From UHGV virus genome UHGV-0079576: a stretch of 25,233 nucleotides of DNA, one strand, 5' to 3'. The first letter of the stretch is position 1; every line of letters begins with the position of its first letter. Below are positions 3,859 to 25,233 of this stretch, one piece after another. Below the pieces are notes generated by a model that was given only the letters and a program-made list of their open reading frames with translations, did not search any database and had not been told where the DNA came from. The DNA is from a virus. The translations under genes were made by a program, and so were the position numbers.

Positions 3859-5746
3859 TGCAGCCGGTGCGATAGCCACAGGGCTTTTATCTCTCAATAT
3901 TCCGGTTCCACTGACGACGGTTCAGTGGGCTGATCAACATTATTATCTGCCGAAAGAATCTTCATACACTCCCGGACAATGGGAAACCCTGCCGTTTCAG
4001 GTTGCCATTATGAACAGCATGGGAAATGACCGGATCCGCACCGTTAATCTGATTAAATCGGCGCGCGTTGGTTACACCAAAATGCTGTTGGGGGTGGAGG
4101 CTTATTTTATTGAGCATAAATCCCGTAACAGTCTGCTTTTTCAGCCAACAGATTCTGCGGCAGAAGATTTCATGAAATCTCATGTTGAGCCAACGATCAG
4201 GGATGTCCCTGCATTGCTGGAGCTGGCTCCATGGTTCGGAAGAAAACATCGTGATAATACACTCACCCTGAAGCGTTTTTCCTCCGGTGTGGGTTTCTGG
4301 TGCCTGGGTGGTGCCGCTGCTAAAAACTACCGTGAAAAATCTGTGGATGTGGTCTGCTATGACGAACTCTCCTCGTTTGAACCGGATGTGGAAAAAGAAG
4401 GTTCGCCGACGCTGCTTGGTGATAAACGCATCGAAGGTTCGGTATGGCCTAAATCCATACGCGGCTCAACGCCAAAAATCAAAGGTTCCTGTCAGATTGA
4501 GAAAGCCGCGAATGAATCTGCGCATTTCATGCGGTTTTATGTCCCTTGCCCTCATTGCGGGGAGGCCCAGTATCTGAAGTTTGGCGATGATGCGACGCCG
4601 TCTGGCCTGAAATGGGAGAAGGGTAAACCGGAAACGGTGTATTACCTGTGTGAACATAATGGCTGTGTGATCCGGCAGTCGGAACTTGACCAGACCGACG
4701 GACGCTGGATTTGTGACAATACCGGGATGTGGACGCGTGATGGCCTGACATTTTACAGCGCCGGTGATGAGGAGATGCCGCCACCGCGCTCAATCTCGTA
4801 CCACATCTGGACGGCGTACAGTCCGTTCACCACCTGGGTGCAGATTGTCTACGACTGGCTGGATGCGCTGAAGGATCCAAACGGTGTTAAGACGTTTATT
4901 AACACCACGCTCGGGGAGCCCTATGAAGAGGCCGTGGCAGAAAAACTGAGCTTTGAGTTGTTGCTGGAAAAAGTCTGCCACTATGGCGCGCAGGTTCCCC
5001 TGCGGGTGGTTTACCTGACCGCCGGGATCGACTCCCAGAAAGATCGCTATGAAATTTATGTCTGGGGCTGGGCTCCCGGCGAAGAAGCCTTTCTGATTGA
5101 TAAGCAAATTATCATGGGGCGACCGGAAGACGAGGACACCCTTAAACGTGTTGATACGGTGATCCGGAAAAAATATCGTCATGCTGACGGTACTGAAATT
5201 TCCATTTCCCGTGTCTGCTGGGATACCGGTGGTATCGACCAGGACATTGTGTATCAGCGTTCCAGGAAACACGGCACTTTTTTTGTGCTTCCCATAAAAG
5301 GGGCATCGGTGTACGGCAAGCCGGTGATCACCATGCCCAAAAAGCGCAACCAGCGTGGTGTGTTTTTGTGTGAGGTGGGCTCCGATACCGTCAAGGAAAT
5401 GCTGTACGCCCGTTTTGCCCTGCCGGTGGTTTCTGCCAGTGAAGCCGCCCCGTATACCTTCCGTTTTCCGGATAACCCCGACATTTTTTCGGAAGAAGAG
5501 GCGCGTCAGATCGTGGCGGAAGAGCTGGTGGAGAAGGTGGTTAATGGCAGGGTGAAACTGCTGTGGGATAAAAAAGGGCGACGCAACGAAGCCCTCGACT
5601 GCCTGGTATATGCCTATGCTGCCCTGCGTATTTCAGTTCAGCGGTGGCAGCTGGATCTTGAAGCACTGGCCCGTGCCAGAAGAGATGAGCAGGACGACGA
5701 TGAGATGAGTCTGGAAGAAATCGCGGCTGCACTGAGTGGAGGATAA
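3830..5746 (+). CDS. A: Terminase large subunit (lambda gpA-like)
   Basis: Strong collinear similarity to lambda gpA (…[27 protein letters not shown]…[14 protein letters not shown]…[13 protein letters not shown]…WDTGGID…); start chosen at ATG 3830 (GGTGG upstream) inside the Nu1 3' end; track ORF begins at 3788. Confidence 0.95.
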
Positions 5747-10654: not shown

Positions 10655-11020
10655 ATGACAAAAGAGCAGATGACGGAACGCCTTCAGGAGCTGGCAGTGA
10701 TTCTGGGGCGTGAAGCAGATATTTCAGGTTCAAAAGCCGATCTTGAACAGCGCCTGGCGGAATGGGAAGAGGAGGCCGCTGGATTTGATGTGGGGGATAC
10801 AGGGGCGGAAGAGGTGGACAACAACGTATCCGGCGATGGGATGCATTCTGAGCGGGGACTCGTTCGGGTGCGCATGCTGAAAACGGCACATATGCCAGCC
10901 TGTGATGCAGCGACAGGAAAGATGTTGATGTTCGCCCGGGCCTCCAGTGTTGTGCTGGTTAATGAAGCTGCCGTTCCTGCATTACTGGCGGACGGTCTGG
11001 CAGAAAAAATCCGGGAGTGA
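10655..11020 (+). CDS. DNA-packaging / head accessory protein (lambda FI-like)
   Basis: ATG at 10655 (GTG 10652); N-terminus MTKEQMTERLQELAVILGRE… parallels lambda FI MTKDELIARLRSLGEQLNRD…; position after E. Confidence 0.55.
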   Translation: MTKEQMTERLQELAVILGREADISGSKADLEQRLAEWEEEAAGFDVGDTGAEEVDNNVSGDGMHSERGLVRVRMLKTAHMPACDAATGKMLMFARASSVVLVNEAAVPALLADGLAEKIRE

Positions 11021-11424
11021 TGATGTTCGATAATCTGTTCGATCAGGCCATGAGTGATGCGGATGACATCATCCTGGATACGATGGGGACGGAAATCAGC
11101 ATATATCCTGGCGGCACGGAAAGAAAAATCCGTGCCGTTTTCGATGCCCCGGCAGATAACACCGGGATGAACACTGGCAGCGGCGAAATTCGTGATACTG
11201 CGCCTGTGTTATTTACCCGGAGTGCATGGGCCGCCGGTCTGAAAAAATATGACAGGGTCATGATCCACGGCGAACCCTACCAGGTAGTCGATCCCGGCTG
11301 GGATGAGTCAGGCACTGCGGGTCAGGGTGTGATTACCATCACCCTCGCGCGGGGAGAGCCGGGGAGAAATACACCTTCCGCGCCGGAACGACCGAGTAAA
11401 CGTTATGGCAGTCAGAGAGCATGA
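11020..11424 (+). CDS. FII: Head-tail joining protein (lambda FII-like)
   Basis: N-terminus MMFDNLFDQAMSDADDII… parallels lambda FII MADFDNLFDAAIARADETI…; start overlaps the FI stop. Confidence 0.7.
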   Translation: MMFDNLFDQAMSDADDIILDTMGTEISIYPGGTERKIRAVFDAPADNTGMNTGSGEIRDTAPVLFTRSAWAAGLKKYDRVMIHGEPYQVVDPGWDESGTAGQGVITITLARGEPGRNTPSAPERPSKRYGSQRA

Positions 11425-13687: not shown

Positions 13688-14576
13688 TCTGTCCGCGATA
13701 CCGGTACCGGATGCTGTGGAAGTGCCGGATACCGCAATGCTCGTCTCTCAGATAGTGGCGAAGTATCAGGAGGTGGATACGTTGTTTTCAGCACTGGTGG
13801 AATCTGATCCTGCTTATAAATGGGCGGAGGCACTGGCTTTTCGGGTGGCGCTGATGCGCCAGCAAATAAATGATGCAGTTCGTGCAGTACTGCTTGCCAG
13901 TGCCGGTGGGAACGATCTGGATCAGGTTGGCGCGAATTATCAGGTACAGCGGCTGGTAATTACCCCTGCAGACGACAGCACCATTCCGCCCACGCCGGCG
14001 GTGTATGAAGATGATGACGCCTTTCGCGAACGCATTCAGTTGTCATGGGCACGGCTCAGCACCGCTGGCGCGAAAAATGCGTACCACTATTTTGCACAAA
14101 GTGCTGATCCTGATGTGCTGGATGTGAAAGCCTACGGGCCGGAAACGCATTCGCAGGAAGGGCGGGTTTTTCTTTATGTGTTATCCCGGTCAGGAAATGG
14201 CACCGCATCACAACCCCTGCTGGATAAGGTGGCAGCATCAGTCAGTGATGATGAAACCCGTCCCCTGACGGATTTTGTCAGTGTCCGGGCGGCAGAAATT
14301 ATTCCCTACGACGTGGTGGCGAATATTCATATTCCCTACGGACTGGATGGTGAACTGGTAATGGCAAATGCCCGTAAGGCGCTGCAGTCTTACACTGACA
14401 GTGTCCACAGGATTGGTTCAGTGGCATCCCGTTCCGGCATGGATGGTGCACTGCACCAGACCGGGGTGATTACGGTGAATCTGACCTCTCCTGCCAGTGA
14501 TATCGTTCCTGCGATGGGGCAGGCACCGTGGTGCCGTAAGGTAACACTGAACAAGGTGGAGACAACCGATGAATGA
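13668..14576 (+). CDS. J: Baseplate assembly protein (P2 gpJ-like)
   Basis: Collinear with P2 J (AIIDLSAIPVPDAV…LLASAGGNDLDQVGANYQVQRLVITPADDSTIPPTPAV…); ATG at 13668 (track start is TTG 13662). Confidence 0.9.
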   Translation: MSQAIIDLSAIPVPDAVEVPDTAMLVSQIVAKYQEVDTLFSALVESDPAYKWAEALAFRVALMRQQINDAVRAVLLASAGGNDLDQVGANYQVQRLVITPADDSTIPPTPAVYEDDDAFRERIQLSWARLSTAGAKNAYHYFAQSADPDVLDVKAYGPETHSQEGRVFLYVLSRSGNGTASQPLLDKVAASVSDDETRPLTDFVSVRAAEIIPYDVVANIHIPYGLDGELVMANARKALQSYTDSVHRIGSVASRSGMDGALHQTGVITVNLTSPASDIVPAMGQAPWCRKVTLNKVETTDE

Positions 14577-16980
14577 CGATATCAGGAGCATACTGCCGAT
14601 CAATGCCAGCCGGGCAGAGCGGGTGGTGGACTGTGTCGCCGGAGATATGTTGGCAGACATAGCTGTCTGTCTGATCCGCTATGTGAAAAATCCCGATTTA
14701 TGTCCTGCTGAATTGCTGCCATGGCTGGCCTGGGAAATGGCAGTAGATACCTGGAATGAACACTGGACGGAGGTGGAAAAACGTTCTGCTATAAAGCGTG
14801 CCGCCTATATCCATCGCCACAGAGGGACTAAAGCGGCGCTGATGGCGTCGCTGGCTGACAGTCCGTTCCGGTCGCAGATTGTGGAATGGTATGAGCAGAC
14901 GCCGCCTGGTGATCCCTATACCTTCCGGTTGAATGTGGAGCAGAAGGACTTGCCTGTCCTGATGAGTGACCACCAGGATCTGAAACATGCCGTATTACGT
15001 GCCAAAAATCTGCGTAGCTGGTTCAGTATTCATGTTTATGGGGGCTGCCAGGGGAACGGATACAGCTATGGGTATGTGACAGCGACGGAAAAGATGAAAA
15101 ACAGGATACTGCCGTCAGAAATACAGTTGTCATCAGACAACTTACGACTGGCCCCTGGAGACGTTGTTTCTGTGCAGGTGACGGTGCTACCACTGATTGC
15201 TGATTCCCGCGTATTTTCTGTACAAATCGAAAATGACAGTGTGGCCGCGATAAGTGTTTCTGGTGATGTGGTTACTCTGACAGGGAAACAGTCTGGTCGA
15301 ACTACAGTCGTCGTATCAACGGTAAATGGAGTGGTTGCCAGACTGCCGGTAAGTGTTGTGTCGGTTGTTCAGGTTATTATCCGGGCAGATAACGCCAGCA
15401 TGCCACTGTTTTTTATCGATCCCCAGGATAACGACTTCACTATTGATTATGGTGATGGACTGGACAGCAGAGATTATGTGATTAAGGAGGATGTGGTCAA
15501 AGCTACCCGCACATTGCCGGTCGGAGAAGAAATTACACTGACGATTAAGGGCGCGGAAAGTCTGACATTCTACACCCCGAAGGCAGTAAACAACACCAAT
15601 CCACTCCTGGAGATCATCCGCGTCAGTGGTTCCAGAAAAGACATGTCGTGGTTTGCGAATCTGCAGTGGGCATTGCGAAAAATTCACGCAGGTTCTTTTG
15701 ATAATCTGCCTCACGTACTTTCATTTGAGAATGCCTTTAGGGGGTGTTCGTCTCTTCATGAATTACCTGAAAATCTTTTTGCCAGGTGCGAAGCTGTGGT
15801 GAATTGGTCTGGTGTATTCTATGGGTGCTCTGCCCTGACAGACATCCCACATTTATTTGCGACAAAATCAAGCGCGAACATACTTTCAAAACTGTTTTGT
15901 GGCTGTTCGGAGATCGTCCGGGTCCCGGAGACATTATTCGCTGGTATGGAGAATGCATTGACTTTTGAAAATGCTTTTTCCGGGTGTGAGAAGATGGTTA
16001 ATGCCCCCGCTATTCCAGCTCACAGACTTCAGAATTTTTACAGGGCGTTTTCTGGGTGTTGTAATCTTGCGGAACTCCCGGCGATATTTGGGGAGCAGAA
16101 CGAAAACGACGCATCATCAATTGATTTGTCCTGTGCGTTTTATGGTTGCCGAACACTGACAACCATTCCCGGTGGCTGGGCGGATGTTATCAGAAGCAGA
16201 ATTGCGCATATTGATGGCATATTTAATGAGTGTGACAGTATACGCAGTATACCTGCGCGATTGTTTTCTGGAGCAGATAAGCTTCGTTCTGCTAATAATG
16301 CGTTTTACAACTGCCACAGTATTACCCATGTTGGCGATGGTTTATTCGAGGGATGTCAGAAGCTGACAGGGATAAACGGGGTGTTTTATAACTGCAAATC
16401 ACTGGAAAGCATTGGTGACAGACTTTTTTCCGGGTGTGTGTCAGTTAAATCGGCATCAGAAACGTTTGCTAACTGTAATATTTCGACTGAGATCGGTGAA
16501 GGGACTTTTTCTGGTTGTACATCTCTGATATCAATGAATTCCGTTTTTGCAAATTGCAGAAAACTTATTATGTTACCGGCTGACACATTCAGAGGATGTA
16601 TTTCGCTGAAAGATGTGTCTTATATTTTTTCGAATTGCAATGCATTAACAAAGATTCAGGGGGAACTATTTGCAGACTGCCCACTTACCGTGAGCAGAGG
16701 CATGTTCAGATGGTGTTCGTCATTGATTAAGGTTCCTTGTGGGGTGATTAATCATCGGGAAAGTAGTGTCGACATGACCGAAATGTTTCGTGAGTGCACA
16801 TTATTGGCAATGGACATTAATGATATATTCCCGGATGTGTTTGCTGAAAAATGCAATCTGTCATATTTGTTTTTCCAGTGCAGCAATGTAACAGGCAGTA
16901 AGTCAGAATTTATGGCAAAGTTTCCGGATCCGGTATCTGTTGCTAATGCGTTTAATTATTGTTCGTTACTTACAGACTGA
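14569..16980 (+). CDS. I: Baseplate protein gpI fused to a C-terminal Ig-like (Big_2-type) domain and a long Cys-containing leucine-rich-repeat (BspA-like) domain; 803 aa
   Basis: First ~175 aa collinear with P2 gpI (…NPDLCPAELLPWLAWEMAVDTWNEHWTEVEKRSAIKRAAYIHRHRGTKAA…PPGDPYTFRLNV…); then an Ig-like beta-rich segment (VVSVQVTVLPL…VTLTGKQSGRTTVVVSTVNGVV); from ~15720 about 20 repeats of F-x-G-C-x-x-L-x-x-I/V-P; single uninterrupted ORF. Confidence 0.85.
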   Translation: MNDDIRSILPINASRAERVVDCVAGDMLADIAVCLIRYVKNPDLCPAELLPWLAWEMAVDTWNEHWTEVEKRSAIKRAAYIHRHRGTKAALMASLADSPFRSQIVEWYEQTPPGDPYTFRLNVEQKDLPVLMSDHQDLKHAVLRAKNLRSWFSIHVYGGCQGNGYSYGYVTATEKMKNRILPSEIQLSSDNLRLAPGDVVSVQVTVLPLIADSRVFSVQIENDSVAAISVSGDVVTLTGKQSGRTTVVVSTVNGVVARLPVSVVSVVQVIIRADNASMPLFFIDPQDNDFTIDYGDGLDSRDYVIKEDVVKATRTLPVGEEITLTIKGAESLTFYTPKAVNNTNPLLEIIRVSGSRKDMSWFANLQWALRKIHAGSFDNLPHVLSFENAFRGCSSLHELPENLFARCEAVVNWSGVFYGCSALTDIPHLFATKSSANILSKLFCGCSEIVRVPETLFAGMENALTFENAFSGCEKMVNAPAIPAHRLQNFYRAFSGCCNLAELPAIFGEQNENDASSIDLSCAFYGCRTLTTIPGGWADVIRSRIAHIDGIFNECDSIRSIPARLFSGADKLRSANNAFYNCHSITHVGDGLFEGCQKLTGINGVFYNCKSLESIGDRLFSGCVSVKSASETFANCNISTEIGEGTFSGCTSLISMNSVFANCRKLIMLPADTFRGCISLKDVSYIFSNCNALTKIQGELFADCPLTVSRGMFRWCSSLIKVPCGVINHRESSVDMTEMFRECTLLAMDINDIFPDVFAEKCNLSYLFFQCSNVTGSKSEFMAKFPDPVSVANAFNYCSLLTD

Positions 16981-16992
16981 TAAGGAGAATGT

Positions 16993-18381
16993 ATGCCATC
17001 AGGACTGACGTTAACAATACAAGGAGCAGCCGAAATTGAATCGGCTTATCAGACTGGTCAGGTGGTTACGATCACTCATGTACTGACGGGGGATGGTGGC
17101 GGTAAAACGTTACCATCAACACCTGATGAGATGGCTTCAATGTCGGCATTGTTGGGGCAATTTGGTCAGGAAGTGTTTTCTGAAGGTAAGGTTGAGCAGG
17201 GATTTATCAGTGGTGACATTGTCATTGACTGTAAAAAATATCCCGGAAGAACCTTGCGTGAGCTGGGAATGGTTAGCAGCAGCGGTACGCTGATTGCTTA
17301 TGGTCGTTATCCCGACACGTATTTACCGGCGCAGACTGATTCTGTTATCAAAGAAGTTATACTGACAATGGTTCTGGCGCTTACCCACACCCAGAATGTG
17401 ACGCTGGAGATTGATCCTGAAAGGGCCATTATTACCCAGGAAACAGGTGACAGGCGTTATCTGCAACGAAAAAACAATCTTTCAGATGTGGAAGACAATG
17501 ACGAAGCAATTGATAACCTCGGATTAAAACCCACGGTAGACAAGGCAAAAAATGCCGTTCAGCGTGATGGTGACACCATGAGCGGGGAACTGAAAATCCA
17601 TGGTGTGAATGCGCTGAGGATTTTCAACGAAGCTTTTGGTCTGATTTTTCGTCGTTCGGAAGAGTGCCTGCACCTTATCCCTACCAGTGAAGGTCAGGGT
17701 GAAAATGGCGATATTGGCCCCCTGCGTCCGTTCACCATAAATTTGCGGACGGGTGAGATATCCATGTCGCACAAAGTGTCTGTTGGCGGTGGTTCTCAGG
17801 TGAATGGTGCATTGGGTATCGGCGTTCTGAACGCACTGGGCGGTAACTCAATTGCTCTCGGAGATAACGATACAGGTATAAAACAAAACGGCGACGGCAT
17901 TCTGGATGTTTATGCGAATGGACAGCATGTATTTCGTTTTCAGAATGGGGTGGCAATAGCGTTAAAAAATATTCAGGCCGGAAATGCCAGGAAATTTACG
18001 CTATCCAGCACTAACGAATCTGCGAAAAATGCAACGTTTAATTTATGGGGGCATTCATCCAGACCCGTAGTTGTTGAACTTGGTGATGATTCAGGCTGGC
18101 ATTTTTACAGCCAGAGGAATACAGATAACAGCATCACGTTCGCTGTAAACGGACAGGTAGTGCCATCAAATTATGGAAACTTTGATGCCCGTTACCAGAT
18201 GAAAACAGGGATCGTACAGGATGTGCGACTGGGGAGTGCGGTTGGGATTGGGCGTGGAGGGAATGCACCATCAGGCCATTTGCTGAGCGGTGTTGATGGT
18301 GGCGAAAGCGTGGACTGGGCGAATGCCCGCCCGGTGCAGGTTCTGATTAATGGCGTCTGGCGGAATGTAGCGAGTTTGTAA
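16993..18381 (+). CDS. H: Tail fibre protein (P2 gpH-like N-terminal domain, divergent C-terminal receptor-binding part)
   Basis: 462 aa; AAGGAG RBS; N-terminus …VTITHVLTGDGGGKTLPSTPD…RELGMVSSSGTLIAYGRYP… parallels P2 H (…ITTMAVGDGGGK…RELGLYDDAGTLIAVANMA…). Confidence 0.75.
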   Translation: MPSGLTLTIQGAAEIESAYQTGQVVTITHVLTGDGGGKTLPSTPDEMASMSALLGQFGQEVFSEGKVEQGFISGDIVIDCKKYPGRTLRELGMVSSSGTLIAYGRYPDTYLPAQTDSVIKEVILTMVLALTHTQNVTLEIDPERAIITQETGDRRYLQRKNNLSDVEDNDEAIDNLGLKPTVDKAKNAVQRDGDTMSGELKIHGVNALRIFNEAFGLIFRRSEECLHLIPTSEGQGENGDIGPLRPFTINLRTGEISMSHKVSVGGGSQVNGALGIGVLNALGGNSIALGDNDTGIKQNGDGILDVYANGQHVFRFQNGVAIALKNIQAGNARKFTLSSTNESAKNATFNLWGHSSRPVVVELGDDSGWHFYSQRNTDNSITFAVNGQVVPSNYGNFDARYQMKTGIVQDVRLGSAVGIGRGGNAPSGHLLSGVDGGESVDWANARPVQVLINGVWRNVASL

Positions 18382-18383
18382 TT

Positions 18384-18929
18384 ATGATGCATTTAAAAAA
18401 TATTTCTGTTCAGAACCCTAAAACGATTGAGCAATACCAACTGGCACGACAGCATAAATTTTTATTGTGGCTGTTCTCAGAGGATGGTCAGGAATGGCAC
18501 GAAGCTCAGGAAAAATTTCAGCCAGACACACTCAAAGTGATTTATGTCAAAACGGGAGAAGTCGTCTGGGTCGGGAAAAATATCACATCGGTTTGCCCGG
18601 AAAATAAAAGCGTAATTGAACTGCCGGACATTACCGCGAATCGTCGTATTGCAGCGTCAGGCTACTGGTTTTACCGCAATGATGAATTTGTTTTCGACTA
18701 CAAATTAAAAGCAGAAGACGAACGCGATGCTCTGTTAAAGCAGGTCAGTATCGTGACCAGCGAGTGGGAAAAAGACCTGCAACTTGGGTTAATCAGCGAC
18801 GAAGATAAAGAAAAGCTGAAGGCGTACCGTATTTACGCAAAGAAATTGCAGATGATGGATTTCAGCAATATTTCGGATAAGGCCACTTACAACAATATCG
18901 TCTGGCCTGAGCCACCACAAAATATCTGA
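18384..18929 (+). CDS. Tail fibre assembly protein (Tfa-type chaperone)
   Basis: 181 aa immediately after the fibre gene; C-terminal …YNNIVWPEPPQNI motif typical of Tfa; low GC. Confidence 0.75.
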   Translation: MMHLKNISVQNPKTIEQYQLARQHKFLLWLFSEDGQEWHEAQEKFQPDTLKVIYVKTGEVVWVGKNITSVCPENKSVIELPDITANRRIAASGYWFYRNDEFVFDYKLKAEDERDALLKQVSIVTSEWEKDLQLGLISDEDKEKLKAYRIYAKKLQMMDFSNISDKATYNNIVWPEPPQNI

Positions 18930-23600: not shown

Positions 23601-23793
23601 CGGCGATATGCTGGATGATATCTGTCAGAGACACTATGGCAGTGCCGGACTTAACCAGTCACTGGCAGCGGTACTGGAGGCTAATCCGGGGATTGCTGAC
23701 TTTGGTCCGGTGTATCCCGCAGGGGTGGAAATCGTGTTGCCGGACTGGACATATGAGCCGGAAGAGGAGGAGGCGTTTCAGTTATGGGACTGA
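23575..23793 (+). CDS. X: Tail protein X (P2 gpX-like, LysM-type)
   Basis: 72 aa; …GDMLDDICQRHYG…LEANPGIADFGPVYPAGVEIVLPD parallels P2 X (…GDTLDAICVRYYG…LAANPGLAELGAVLPHGTAVELPD). Confidence 0.8.
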   Translation: MAKNWRTTDGDMLDDICQRHYGSAGLNQSLAAVLEANPGIADFGPVYPAGVEIVLPDWTYEPEEEEAFQLWD

Positions 23794-24884
23794 ATGAATA
23801 TCAGCCTGATTTCAGTCTGACAGCGGAAGGTAATGATATCACAAAGGCCATAAAGCGGGGGCTGGCAGAACTGCGTTATACCGATAATGGTGCGGCCACA
23901 AAGCGATCCGATGAACTGATGGTAACGCTGTTCAGCGAGACGATGGCGCTACCTCCGAAAGGTGCGGTATTAACGCTGGGGCTGGGATTTAATGGAAATC
24001 TGGTAAATAAAGGCAGCTTTACCGTCTGTCAGGTGGCAAGCGGTGGCCCTCCCCGCCGGATCACCATTTATGCCACCGCAGCCCCCATGAATGCGTCCAG
24101 ACATGGCGCGGATGTGACCGCACTGAAAACCCGCGCCTTCAGCGATATCACGCTGGGCGACCTGGTAAAAACCATCGCCACTGAAAATAATCTGGTGGCG
24201 CGGGTTTCACCATCGCTTGCTGATATTCGTATCTCCTGGGAGATGCAGTCGTCAGAATCAGACGCAGCCCTCCTGTCCCGGCTTGCAGGCGTGTATGGTG
24301 CCACCAGTAAACCGACGAACGGTTACTGGTTATTTCTGGAGTATGGTGCATCGCAGAGTACAGGCGGAAGAGATACCCCAGTGATGACCATCACACCGGA
24401 TATGGTGTCAGACTGGGATTACCGGGAGGGCGAACGACAGGGTGCTGCGGGTAGTGGGAAGGGAGACAAAAAGAATGGGAAAGTGGGTGTCCGATATTTT
24501 GATACCCGTGACGGACGCACACGAGAAGTTAAAGTGGATGTGGAGTCTACAGACAAGCGGCATCCGTTTACCCAGCCTGACCAGGGCACAGCAAAACACT
24601 GTGCAGACTCGAAAGTTAAACGCGTGCAGAGAGCCGGACGCCAGATGACGATAACGCTACCGTGCAGACCGGCACTGCTGAAAGCGGGAGCAGAGATGCG
24701 TTTTATCACGCAGGGGTTTGGAGTACGGGAAGATCATAACTGGCAGGCAGAGTCAGTGGAGTTTTCACTGGCACCAGGGCAGGGGTTTGCGCTGAATCTG
24801 TCGCTGGCTACCGATATTTCCGCGAAAGGGAAGGCCTCAGGGAAGAAGAAAGCGGATAAAAAGGGCGTGAATTATTTTGGTTAG
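23784..24884 (+). CDS. D: Tail protein D (P2 late control gene D-like)
   Basis: 366 aa; …LGDLVKTIATENNLVARVSPSLADIRISWEMQSSESDAALLSRLAG… parallels P2 D …LGAIVKAIATRNRLEASVAPSLAGIKIPHIDQSQESDAKFLTRLAE…. Confidence 0.85.
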   Translation: MGLNEYQPDFSLTAEGNDITKAIKRGLAELRYTDNGAATKRSDELMVTLFSETMALPPKGAVLTLGLGFNGNLVNKGSFTVCQVASGGPPRRITIYATAAPMNASRHGADVTALKTRAFSDITLGDLVKTIATENNLVARVSPSLADIRISWEMQSSESDAALLSRLAGVYGATSKPTNGYWLFLEYGASQSTGGRDTPVMTITPDMVSDWDYREGERQGAAGSGKGDKKNGKVGVRYFDTRDGRTREVKVDVESTDKRHPFTQPDQGTAKHCADSKVKRVQRAGRQMTITLPCRPALLKAGAEMRFITQGFGVREDHNWQAESVEFSLAPGQGFALNLSLATDISAKGKASGKKKADKKGVNYFG

Positions 24885-24908
24885 TGTTTTCTGTATCAGG
24901 TAATAAAA

Positions 24909-25233
24909 ATGGCTGTATTAATTTCAGGTGTGCTGACTGATGGCGCGGGACTCCCCATGTCCGGATACCATATTCTTCTGAAAGCCAGGCAGAATACATC
25001 TGCAGTGGTCATGAGAACGGTGGCTGCAGTGGTGACAGGGGCGGCAGGAGAATATGCCTTTGAGGCTCAGACCGGAAAATATGATGTATATCTTCGGTCG
25101 TGCATTGAAAGAGAATATTGTGTCGGTGACATTTCAGTTTATGAAGACTCCAGACCCGGCACGCTGAACGACTTCCTTACCGCCCTTGATGAAGACGACC
25201 TGAAGCCGGATGTGGTGAAGCGTTTTGAGGAAA
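24909..25233 (+). CDS. stf: Side tail fibre protein, N-terminal part only (lambda Stf / prophage tail-fibre N-terminal domain); runs off the window
   Basis: MAVLISGVLTDGAGLPMSGYHILLKARQNTSAVVM…YDVYL…ISVYEDSRPGTLNDFLTALDEDDLKPDVVKRFE parallels lambda Stf MAVKISGVLKDGTGKPVQNCTIQLKA…YSVIL…ITVYEDSQPGTLNDFL…EDDARPE. Confidence 0.75.
   Translation, partial: MAVLISGVLTDGAGLPMSGYHILLKARQNTSAVVMRTVAAVVTGAAGEYAFEAQTGKYDVYLRSCIEREYCVGDISVYEDSRPGTLNDFLTALDEDDLKPDVVKRFEE

Follow-up and report, generated by a model that had tools for sequence, protein, structure and literature searches.

An intact lambda Stf-type fibre gene after the P2-type tail genes of a lambdoid Escherichia coli prophage, probably encoding a second set of fibres

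We analyzed a 25,233-nt stretch of virus genome UHGV-0079576 (the window), which ends inside an open reading frame that begins just after a P2-type tail gene, D. At the level of sequence, homology confirms that this frame is the start of a genuine and intact gene of the lambda Stf family, with a match well above chance. In our reading, to which we assign a probability of about 0.7, it is an intact gene of 465 codons, second-to-last in a lambdoid late operon, and it gives the phage an accessory second set of fibres. The gain is a correct annotation: this prophage family encodes two complete sets of fibre and chaperone, so a prediction of host range from one fibre gene would be wrong.

The start of the Stf-type gene

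The features at the end of the window are:

23784..24884, + strand: gpD-like tail/baseplate hub gene, the last of the P2-type block FI-FII-E-T-U-X-D (PF05954, tblastn, PGAP)
24885..24908, + strand: D-Stf intergenic spacer of 24 nt, with an AGG(A) Shine-Dalgarno sequence (sequence, alignment)
24909..25233, + strand: 5' end of stf, codons 1-108 of 465 (PF08400, match to 9e7m, AF2 with Foldseek)

The gpD-like gene ends with a TAG stop codon at 24882-24884. Its hit to PF05954 (E = 1.8e-6, 27.8 bits) is slightly under the cut-off of 30.1 bits. In tblastn searches, it was 30% identical to D of phiCTX and 50% identical to a tail protein of Hafnia phage yong2, and it also matched gpD of Chris1. PGAP names it "late control protein / VgrG-Pvc8 family."

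The initial annotation, which was made without database searches, had noticed an open reading frame at 24909 after the D gene and had compared its first 108 residues to the N-terminal domain of Stf. Both observations hold up. There is an ATG at 24909, 24 nt past the stop of the gpD-like gene, and it opens a frame of 108 codons that runs to the end of the window. These 108 amino acids match positions 1-108 (of 134) of the Pfam profile PF08400, "Prophage tail fibre N-terminal," with E = 2e-48 and 164 bits (the cut-off for this profile is 26.6 bits). When the full-length protein of 465 amino acids (described below) is used instead, the match covers residues 1-132 and profile positions 1-132 of 134 (E = 3.9e-50), and phmmer finds similarity between the full-length protein from E. 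coli M8 and residues 1-93 of the solved Stf chain of Ur-lambda, 9e7m (E = 3e-18). An AF2 model of the window's N-terminus (pLDDT 72) has six strands and a helix, and its top match in Foldseek is 9e7m as well (TMq 0.73, E = 5.9e-9, 48% identity). In this model, 24909..25233 encodes the N-terminal anchor (or "collar") domain, predicted to be a six-strand beta-sandwich with a helix.

The Shine-Dalgarno sequence in the window is weak (AGG at 24898-24900, 8 nt before the ATG of stf), and relatives carry AGGA. In an alignment of the spacer with three members of the family, CAGGAAATAAAAATG is conserved. A scan of the + strand for terminators found none between D and stf, so with just 24 nt between the two genes, stf is expected to lie on the same late transcript as the tail genes.

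The complete gene, its chaperone, and the attachment site

Positions 23784-25233 of the window are 100% identical to prophages of three E. coli isolates from mice (M8, RSHH22, and SK6988), and the window as a whole is 99.5% identical to these prophages. As the initial annotation had expected, the gene extends beyond the window. In all three prophages, stf is an intact coding sequence of 1398 bp that encodes 465 amino acids (WP_129541826.1). In M8, it lies at:

16126-17523 of locus L001: full stf, 465 aa (annotation of the M8 prophage)

The protein has the PF08400 anchor, a coiled-coil shaft that is rich in alanine and glutamine, a collar (PF07484), and a needle tip with HxH motifs, in that order. 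When it is compared to 2xgf, the receptor-binding tip of T4 gp37, the alignment spans its C-terminal 194 amino acids (residues 272-465; E = 3e-58). The tip has five HxH motifs, and there are deletions opposite the middle of the gp37 tip.

The initial annotation had suggested looking downstream for truncation or decay of the gene and for a cognate Tfa. The fibre gene is intact, and it is followed by tfa, an ORF of 200 amino acids that overlaps the stop codon of stf by 4 nt and matches PF02413 (E = 1.3e-28). Directly 3' of tfa, a hairpin with a 10-bp GC-rich inverted repeat can be seen in the sequence (it has a loop of 10 nt, and the terminator scan did not flag it). The 3' end of the host gene potB is about 200 bp beyond the hairpin. 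A 14-bp att core, CACCTTCTTATTCA, is present on the potC side and on the potB side of the prophage (about 5556-5569 of locus L004 and about 18339-18352 of L001). On the potB side, the core is outside stf-tfa, roughly 215 nt beyond the stop codon of tfa, and hence stf-tfa is part of the prophage.

The integration point is the overlap of the potB stop codon and the potC start codon. From our reading of the sequence, integration swaps the last three codons of potB (ELE becomes SEIDN), and the integrated prophage cuts potC off from its upstream partner.

A lambdoid prophage with a P2-type contractile tail

In the annotation of M8, the element is a lambdoid prophage that lies between potC and potB. 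Its early and lysis genes include int, xis, exo, cI/cro-like and O/P-like genes, RusA, and lysis genes. Its head genes are of the lambda type (Nu1, A, W, B, C, D, E, FI, and FII), and lambda-type gpFII was recognized by homology to PDB 1k0h (E = 6.6e-8). The gpFII-like gene is at 11017-11424 of the window. These are joined to a P2-type set of tail genes, in the order V-W-J-I-H-G-FI-FII-E-T-U-X-D, followed by Stf-Tfa. The order of the tail genes is supported by Pfam for J, I, H, and G, and by PGAP names for V, W, sheath, tube, E, U, X, and D. With Pfam searches of the window and the annotation of M8, we found no homologues of gpV, gpM, or lambda J in the phage; the tail is of the P2 type and contractile. 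There is no break in GC content at the boundary between D and stf-tfa. As in lambda, the late operon ends with the pair stf-tfa, by attR, which is the normal position of these genes in a lambdoid prophage. The initial annotation was right that a Stf gene follows a P2-type D, but the element should not be taken for a P2 phage with an extra gene; it is a lambdoid prophage with a P2-type tail module.

When we compared D plus Stf, and the entire window, to 50,697 phage records with megablast, the only matches were to head genes of the lambda/21 type, at about 77% identity, which excludes an isolated phage of the same family among these records. The isolated phages whose gpD is most similar, yong2 (L002) and Chris1 (L003), have lambda-type heads and P2-type tails and no Stf. 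Their tail genes are in the order V, then FI-FII-E-T-U-X-D, then W-J-I-H-G, so the block from FI to D has moved relative to the baseplate block in one of the lineages.

We also noticed some other features of these elements. M8 has an IS66-family element (7534-10122 of L001) between the chaperone and sheath genes, at a site that corresponds to 18929/18937 of the window. The annotated sheath coding sequence in M8 is shortened, while the sheath gene is intact (507 aa) in the window, RSHH22, and SK6988. Genes for a TerB-family protein and a DUF3927 protein (289-714 of the window and neighbours) immediately precede the holin genes and look like moron cargo. We take this position to be the slot that holds stx in Stx phages.

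The first fibre and an extended gpI

The tail module encodes a first fibre, its chaperone, and a long gpI:

14569..16980, + strand: gpI baseplate wedge with a C-terminal extension of about 650 aa that includes BspA-type LRRs (PF09684 at residues 9-149, PF13306 at residues 564-705)
16993..18381, + strand: first fibre, P2 H-type, with a PF12571 N-terminus for attachment to the baseplate (PF12571, BLASTP)
18384..18929, + strand: chaperone of the first fibre, gpG/Tfa type (PF02413 with E = 8e-24, BLASTP)

Both the P2 H-like fibre and the LRR-extended gpI were recognized in the initial annotation, and the domain hits bear this out. Their accessions are WP_129541819.1 for the H-type fibre and WP_129541818.1 for gpI-LRR. 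Residues 160-462 of the fibre are 73% identical to the fibre L54 of phiP27, with an insertion of 56 amino acids, and the chaperone is 88% identical to L55 of phiP27. Judging from these alignments, the fibre is a chimera of a P2 H N-terminus and a distal part like that of L54. P2-type and Mu-type tails are trading fibre cassettes.

The gpI protein has 803 amino acids, instead of the usual 196 or so. The DNA for its extension is found in just 3 of 5426 complete genomes of E. coli, all of them mouse isolates. About 25 protein clusters from E. coli, Salmonella, and Klebsiella combine PF09684 with PF13306, with or without Big_2 (775-1049 aa). More remote matches to the extension are BspA-like LRR proteins, several of which are from metagenome collections. 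We know of no characterization of an LRR-extended gpI. That each particle carries up to three receptor-recognition devices is unproven, and gpI-LRR is a candidate for the third.

Conservation, selection, and loss

Of the 5426 complete genomes of E. coli, 71 (72 records) have D and the Stf N-terminus next to each other, with a nucleotide identity of about 87%, and 54 carry at least 80% of the 25-kb window. About 1% of complete genomes of this species contain a member of the prophage family. Its members use different attachment sites (potB/potC, uspF/ompN, and near zinT), and in the members that we examined at these three sites, the order U-X-D-Stf-chaperone is retained. Across the family, Stf has 465, 489, or 790 amino acids, and the chaperone is either Tfa or DUF4376. 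Variation of this kind is what one typically sees in receptor-binding proteins on which host-range selection acts.

Over the 108 codons of the anchor domain, dN/dS is 0.06-0.08 within the family and 0.14 in comparison to phiP27 and Rac-SA53. As judged by these codon comparisons, the anchor domain is under purifying selection.

There are also losses. In strain A10 (10121-10966 of L008), Stf is a truncated pseudogene, and in strain 401651 (L015), at the ydfJ site, the element ends with D and has no Stf-Tfa. These two cases imply that the second fibre is dispensable or can be lost. Several fragments of Stf N-termini in public databases are misnamed "shikimate transporter" (proteins P0033, P0042, P0075, P0080, and P0087). 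Assemblies often break within Stf genes, so most database entries for the PF08400 domain are partial.

How the second fibre might be made and attached

We propose that the Stf-type fibre would be produced late, from the transcript that also encodes the tail, and would form trimers with the help of Tfa. It would then be added to the virion as a second, accessory set, making adsorption faster or broader in the way that Stf does for Ur-lambda, while the P2 H-type fibre on the baseplate would stay the primary fibre. From the selection on the anchor domain and the conserved gene order, we infer that the Stf-type fibre is probably incorporated into the virion. The anchors might dock at an exposed ring of the neck.

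On the tail of Ur-lambda, the place where the last gpV tube ring meets gpM is encircled by a collar of twelve N-terminal domains of Stf, which touch these two proteins via the loop between strands beta4 and beta5. The Stf fibres, four trimers in all, bind to OmpC and make adsorption faster (PMC12617516). When anchors from contractile-tail contexts are compared among themselves, they share 57-96% identity, and their identity to siphophage anchors is 37-56%. (The siphophage set, where the anchor follows J, is lambda, phiSTEC1575-Stx2k, L017, and L018. The grouping was seen on about 12 contexts, with the loci compared in pairs.) The 24 anchor positions that discriminate the two groups are all within residues 4-76, concentrated in the loops beta3-beta4 and beta5-beta6 and in the beta4-beta5 hairpin. 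Changes at these positions, which include the hairpin that makes the contacts in lambda, fit with a different docking surface in the contractile-tail group. Also, the equivalent end of the tube in a contractile tail is presumably covered by the sheath and the baseplate. With no homologue of gpV or gpM, and with the tube end probably buried, the docking site of lambda would not be available.

A candidate for another site comes from XM1, a Vibrio myophage with a contractile tail. Its gp40 (PDB 7kjk), a trimeric collar spike, has an N-terminal beta-sandwich and a helical coiled-coil segment. The spike is held at the neck by its N-terminal domains, which are attached, as six trimers, to the connector gp4 and to the tail terminator gp5 (bioRxiv 10.1101/2021.12.18.469577). 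The N-terminal domain of gp40 and the Stf anchor are just 21% identical, with E = 0.003 from a single sequence and E = 3e-4 from a profile. In Foldseek, our N-terminal model matches 7kjk with TMq 0.67 and E = 6.6e-6 (at 21% identity). The two domains are likely to be remotely homologous, which does not imply that they bind the same site. XM1 gp40 is the only solved myophage relative of the Stf anchor, and attachment at the neck is established for XM1 alone. By analogy, it is quite possible, if somewhat short of an even bet, that the Stf anchor docks at an exposed neck ring as gp40 does. We more tentatively suggest that the PF08400 fibres of contractile-tailed temperate phages of enterobacteria could be a distinct clade that docks at the connector and terminator rings of the neck, and not at the tail tip. 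If so, these phages, including the Stx2e phage phiP27, would have two levels of adsorption, with long gp37-tipped fibres at the neck and other fibres at the baseplate, and a single small domain would have been recruited to attach fibres at one end of a tail or the other. We also looked for a docking partner that is conserved among the window phage, phiP27, and Rac-SA53. None was found, as their neck and baseplate proteins belong to different PHROG families, and we dropped the idea of a shared partner.

Alternative explanations

The two fibre sets might instead be at the same end of the particle, with the anchors arranged as a ring, or as six trimers, around the edge of the P2-type baseplate or where the sheath meets the baseplate. 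We consider this rather unlikely, but it deserves serious weight: in phiP27, Rac-SA53, and Mu-type prophages, the Stf-type gene is right after the genes for the baseplate, the first fibre, and Tfa, and the gene position in Mu-type prophages is explained as well by baseplate docking as by neck docking. Furthermore, the same domain sits at the tail tip in lambda (PMC12617516), and tips of the T4 gp37 type usually act at the end that is closer to the cell. On the other hand, there is no counterpart of gpV or gpM, the junction that would be equivalent is probably buried in a contractile tail, and the only solved homologue from a myophage is at the neck. Also, the baseplate proteins of the P2, Mu, and Rac-SA53 types are from different families, yet the anchors are 77-96% identical. 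An arrangement that seems very improbable to us is a branched fibre, with the Stf anchor bound to the first (H-type) fibre or to a chaperone that is retained on it, rather than to the body of the tail. This would account for why three phages with unrelated tail modules (the window phage, phiP27, and Rac-SA53) have in common the distal part of the first fibre, the first chaperone, and the type of anchor. But ordinary mosaic exchange of neighbouring cassettes explains this co-occurrence as well, and the association is not general: in L010, the anchor is 67% identical but the chaperone is 31% identical, and in STEC309, the anchor is 93% identical but the chaperone is 69% identical. We therefore discarded the coupling of the anchor type to the first fibre or its chaperone.

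It is also conceivable, though improbable, that stf-tfa is left over from a lambdoid ancestor that took up a P2-type tail, in which case the fibre would be expressed but could not attach, and the genes would be cargo for recombination. The position of stf-tfa is exactly that of a lambdoid phage, laboratory lambda is viable without Stf (PMC12617516), and stf has been lost or turned into a pseudogene in two members of the family (401651 and A10). Against this, dN/dS in the anchor domain is 0.06-0.14, and a distinct group of anchors is confined to contractile-tail contexts and is spread over three unrelated tail modules. Most of the relatives have intact ORFs, with C-terminal parts that were exchanged and chaperones that match. 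As for whether stf-tfa belongs to the element at all, it is at the extreme end, adjoining the host's potB, and could be the remnant of another lambdoid prophage that was formerly at the same attachment site. We rejected this idea and give it almost no credence: the 14-bp att core is outside stf-tfa, the 24-nt spacer after D is free of terminators, the GC content has no break, and the junction of D and Stf recurs at three other chromosomal sites. Our preferred reading remains that stf-tfa is a working part of the prophage and encodes an accessory second set of fibres.

Comparison with known systems

The initial annotation had implied that a second, Stf-type fibre was a novelty, which was an overstatement, as phiP27, Rac-SA53, and many prophages with Mu-type tails have one. 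The anchor domains from phages that are most similar to the window's are those of L56 from phiP27 and tail3 from Rac-SA53, at 77% identity, and these two are nearly identical to each other (96%). Both of these phages are temperate and contractile-tailed, and both have a first fibre, a chaperone, a Stf-type fibre, a chaperone, and then attR. The layout in vB_Apl-pPE4 is the same. Anchor domains that are 57-69% identical to the window's occupy the same position behind the baseplate in E. coli and Salmonella, where the baseplate is of the Mu type, and in Cronobacter, where it is of the Rac-SA53 type. Second fibres of the Stf type in temperate contractile-tailed coliphages are thus already in the databases, though they are unstudied: our literature search for PF08400 fibres in myophages did not find any papers. 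The lambda Stf anchor has been seen only on the tail tip of a siphophage, yet contractile-tailed prophages without gpV and gpM carry it widely, and in them it is under selection. Locating the anchor on an inducible member of the family would show how this modular anchor is re-used, and would aid the design of chimeric fibres for engineered phage particles.

phiP27 (L56/L57), Rac-SA53 (tail3/tail4), and the Mu-type prophages resemble the window phage in that their late operon closes with a Stf-type fibre and its chaperone. They differ from it in the placing of the first fibre set, which comes immediately before the second (fibre-Tfa-Stf-Tfa), downstream of a baseplate of the Mu type or another type; in the window phage, the P2 order places FI-FII-E-T-U-X-D between the two sets. 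The C-terminal parts of their Stf proteins are unrelated to that of the window phage. XM1 gp40 differs at the C-terminus too, as it ends in a tailspike, whereas the Stf of the window phage ends in a fibre tip of the gp37/Stf type. The tip is 52-63% identical to the gp37-type tips of T-even phages, Gifsy-1/2, Fels-1, and P2-like Salmonella phages. Because of the deletions relative to gp37, receptor specificity cannot be transferred from gp37 to Stf, and the chaperone is of the lambda Tfa type.

P2 itself has an H-type fibre and a G-type chaperone after gpI, just as in the window, but the Stf anchor domain is different, and P2 has no structural gene after D, where stf is. With lambda's Stf and Tfa, the window phage shares the anchor domain, the coiled-coil shaft, the collar and the HxH tip, the downstream Tfa, and the location on the attR side. 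Lambda Stf has about 774 amino acids; the fibre of the window phage is shorter, at 465 amino acids, has a shortened tip with five HxH motifs, and belongs to a phage with a contractile tail.
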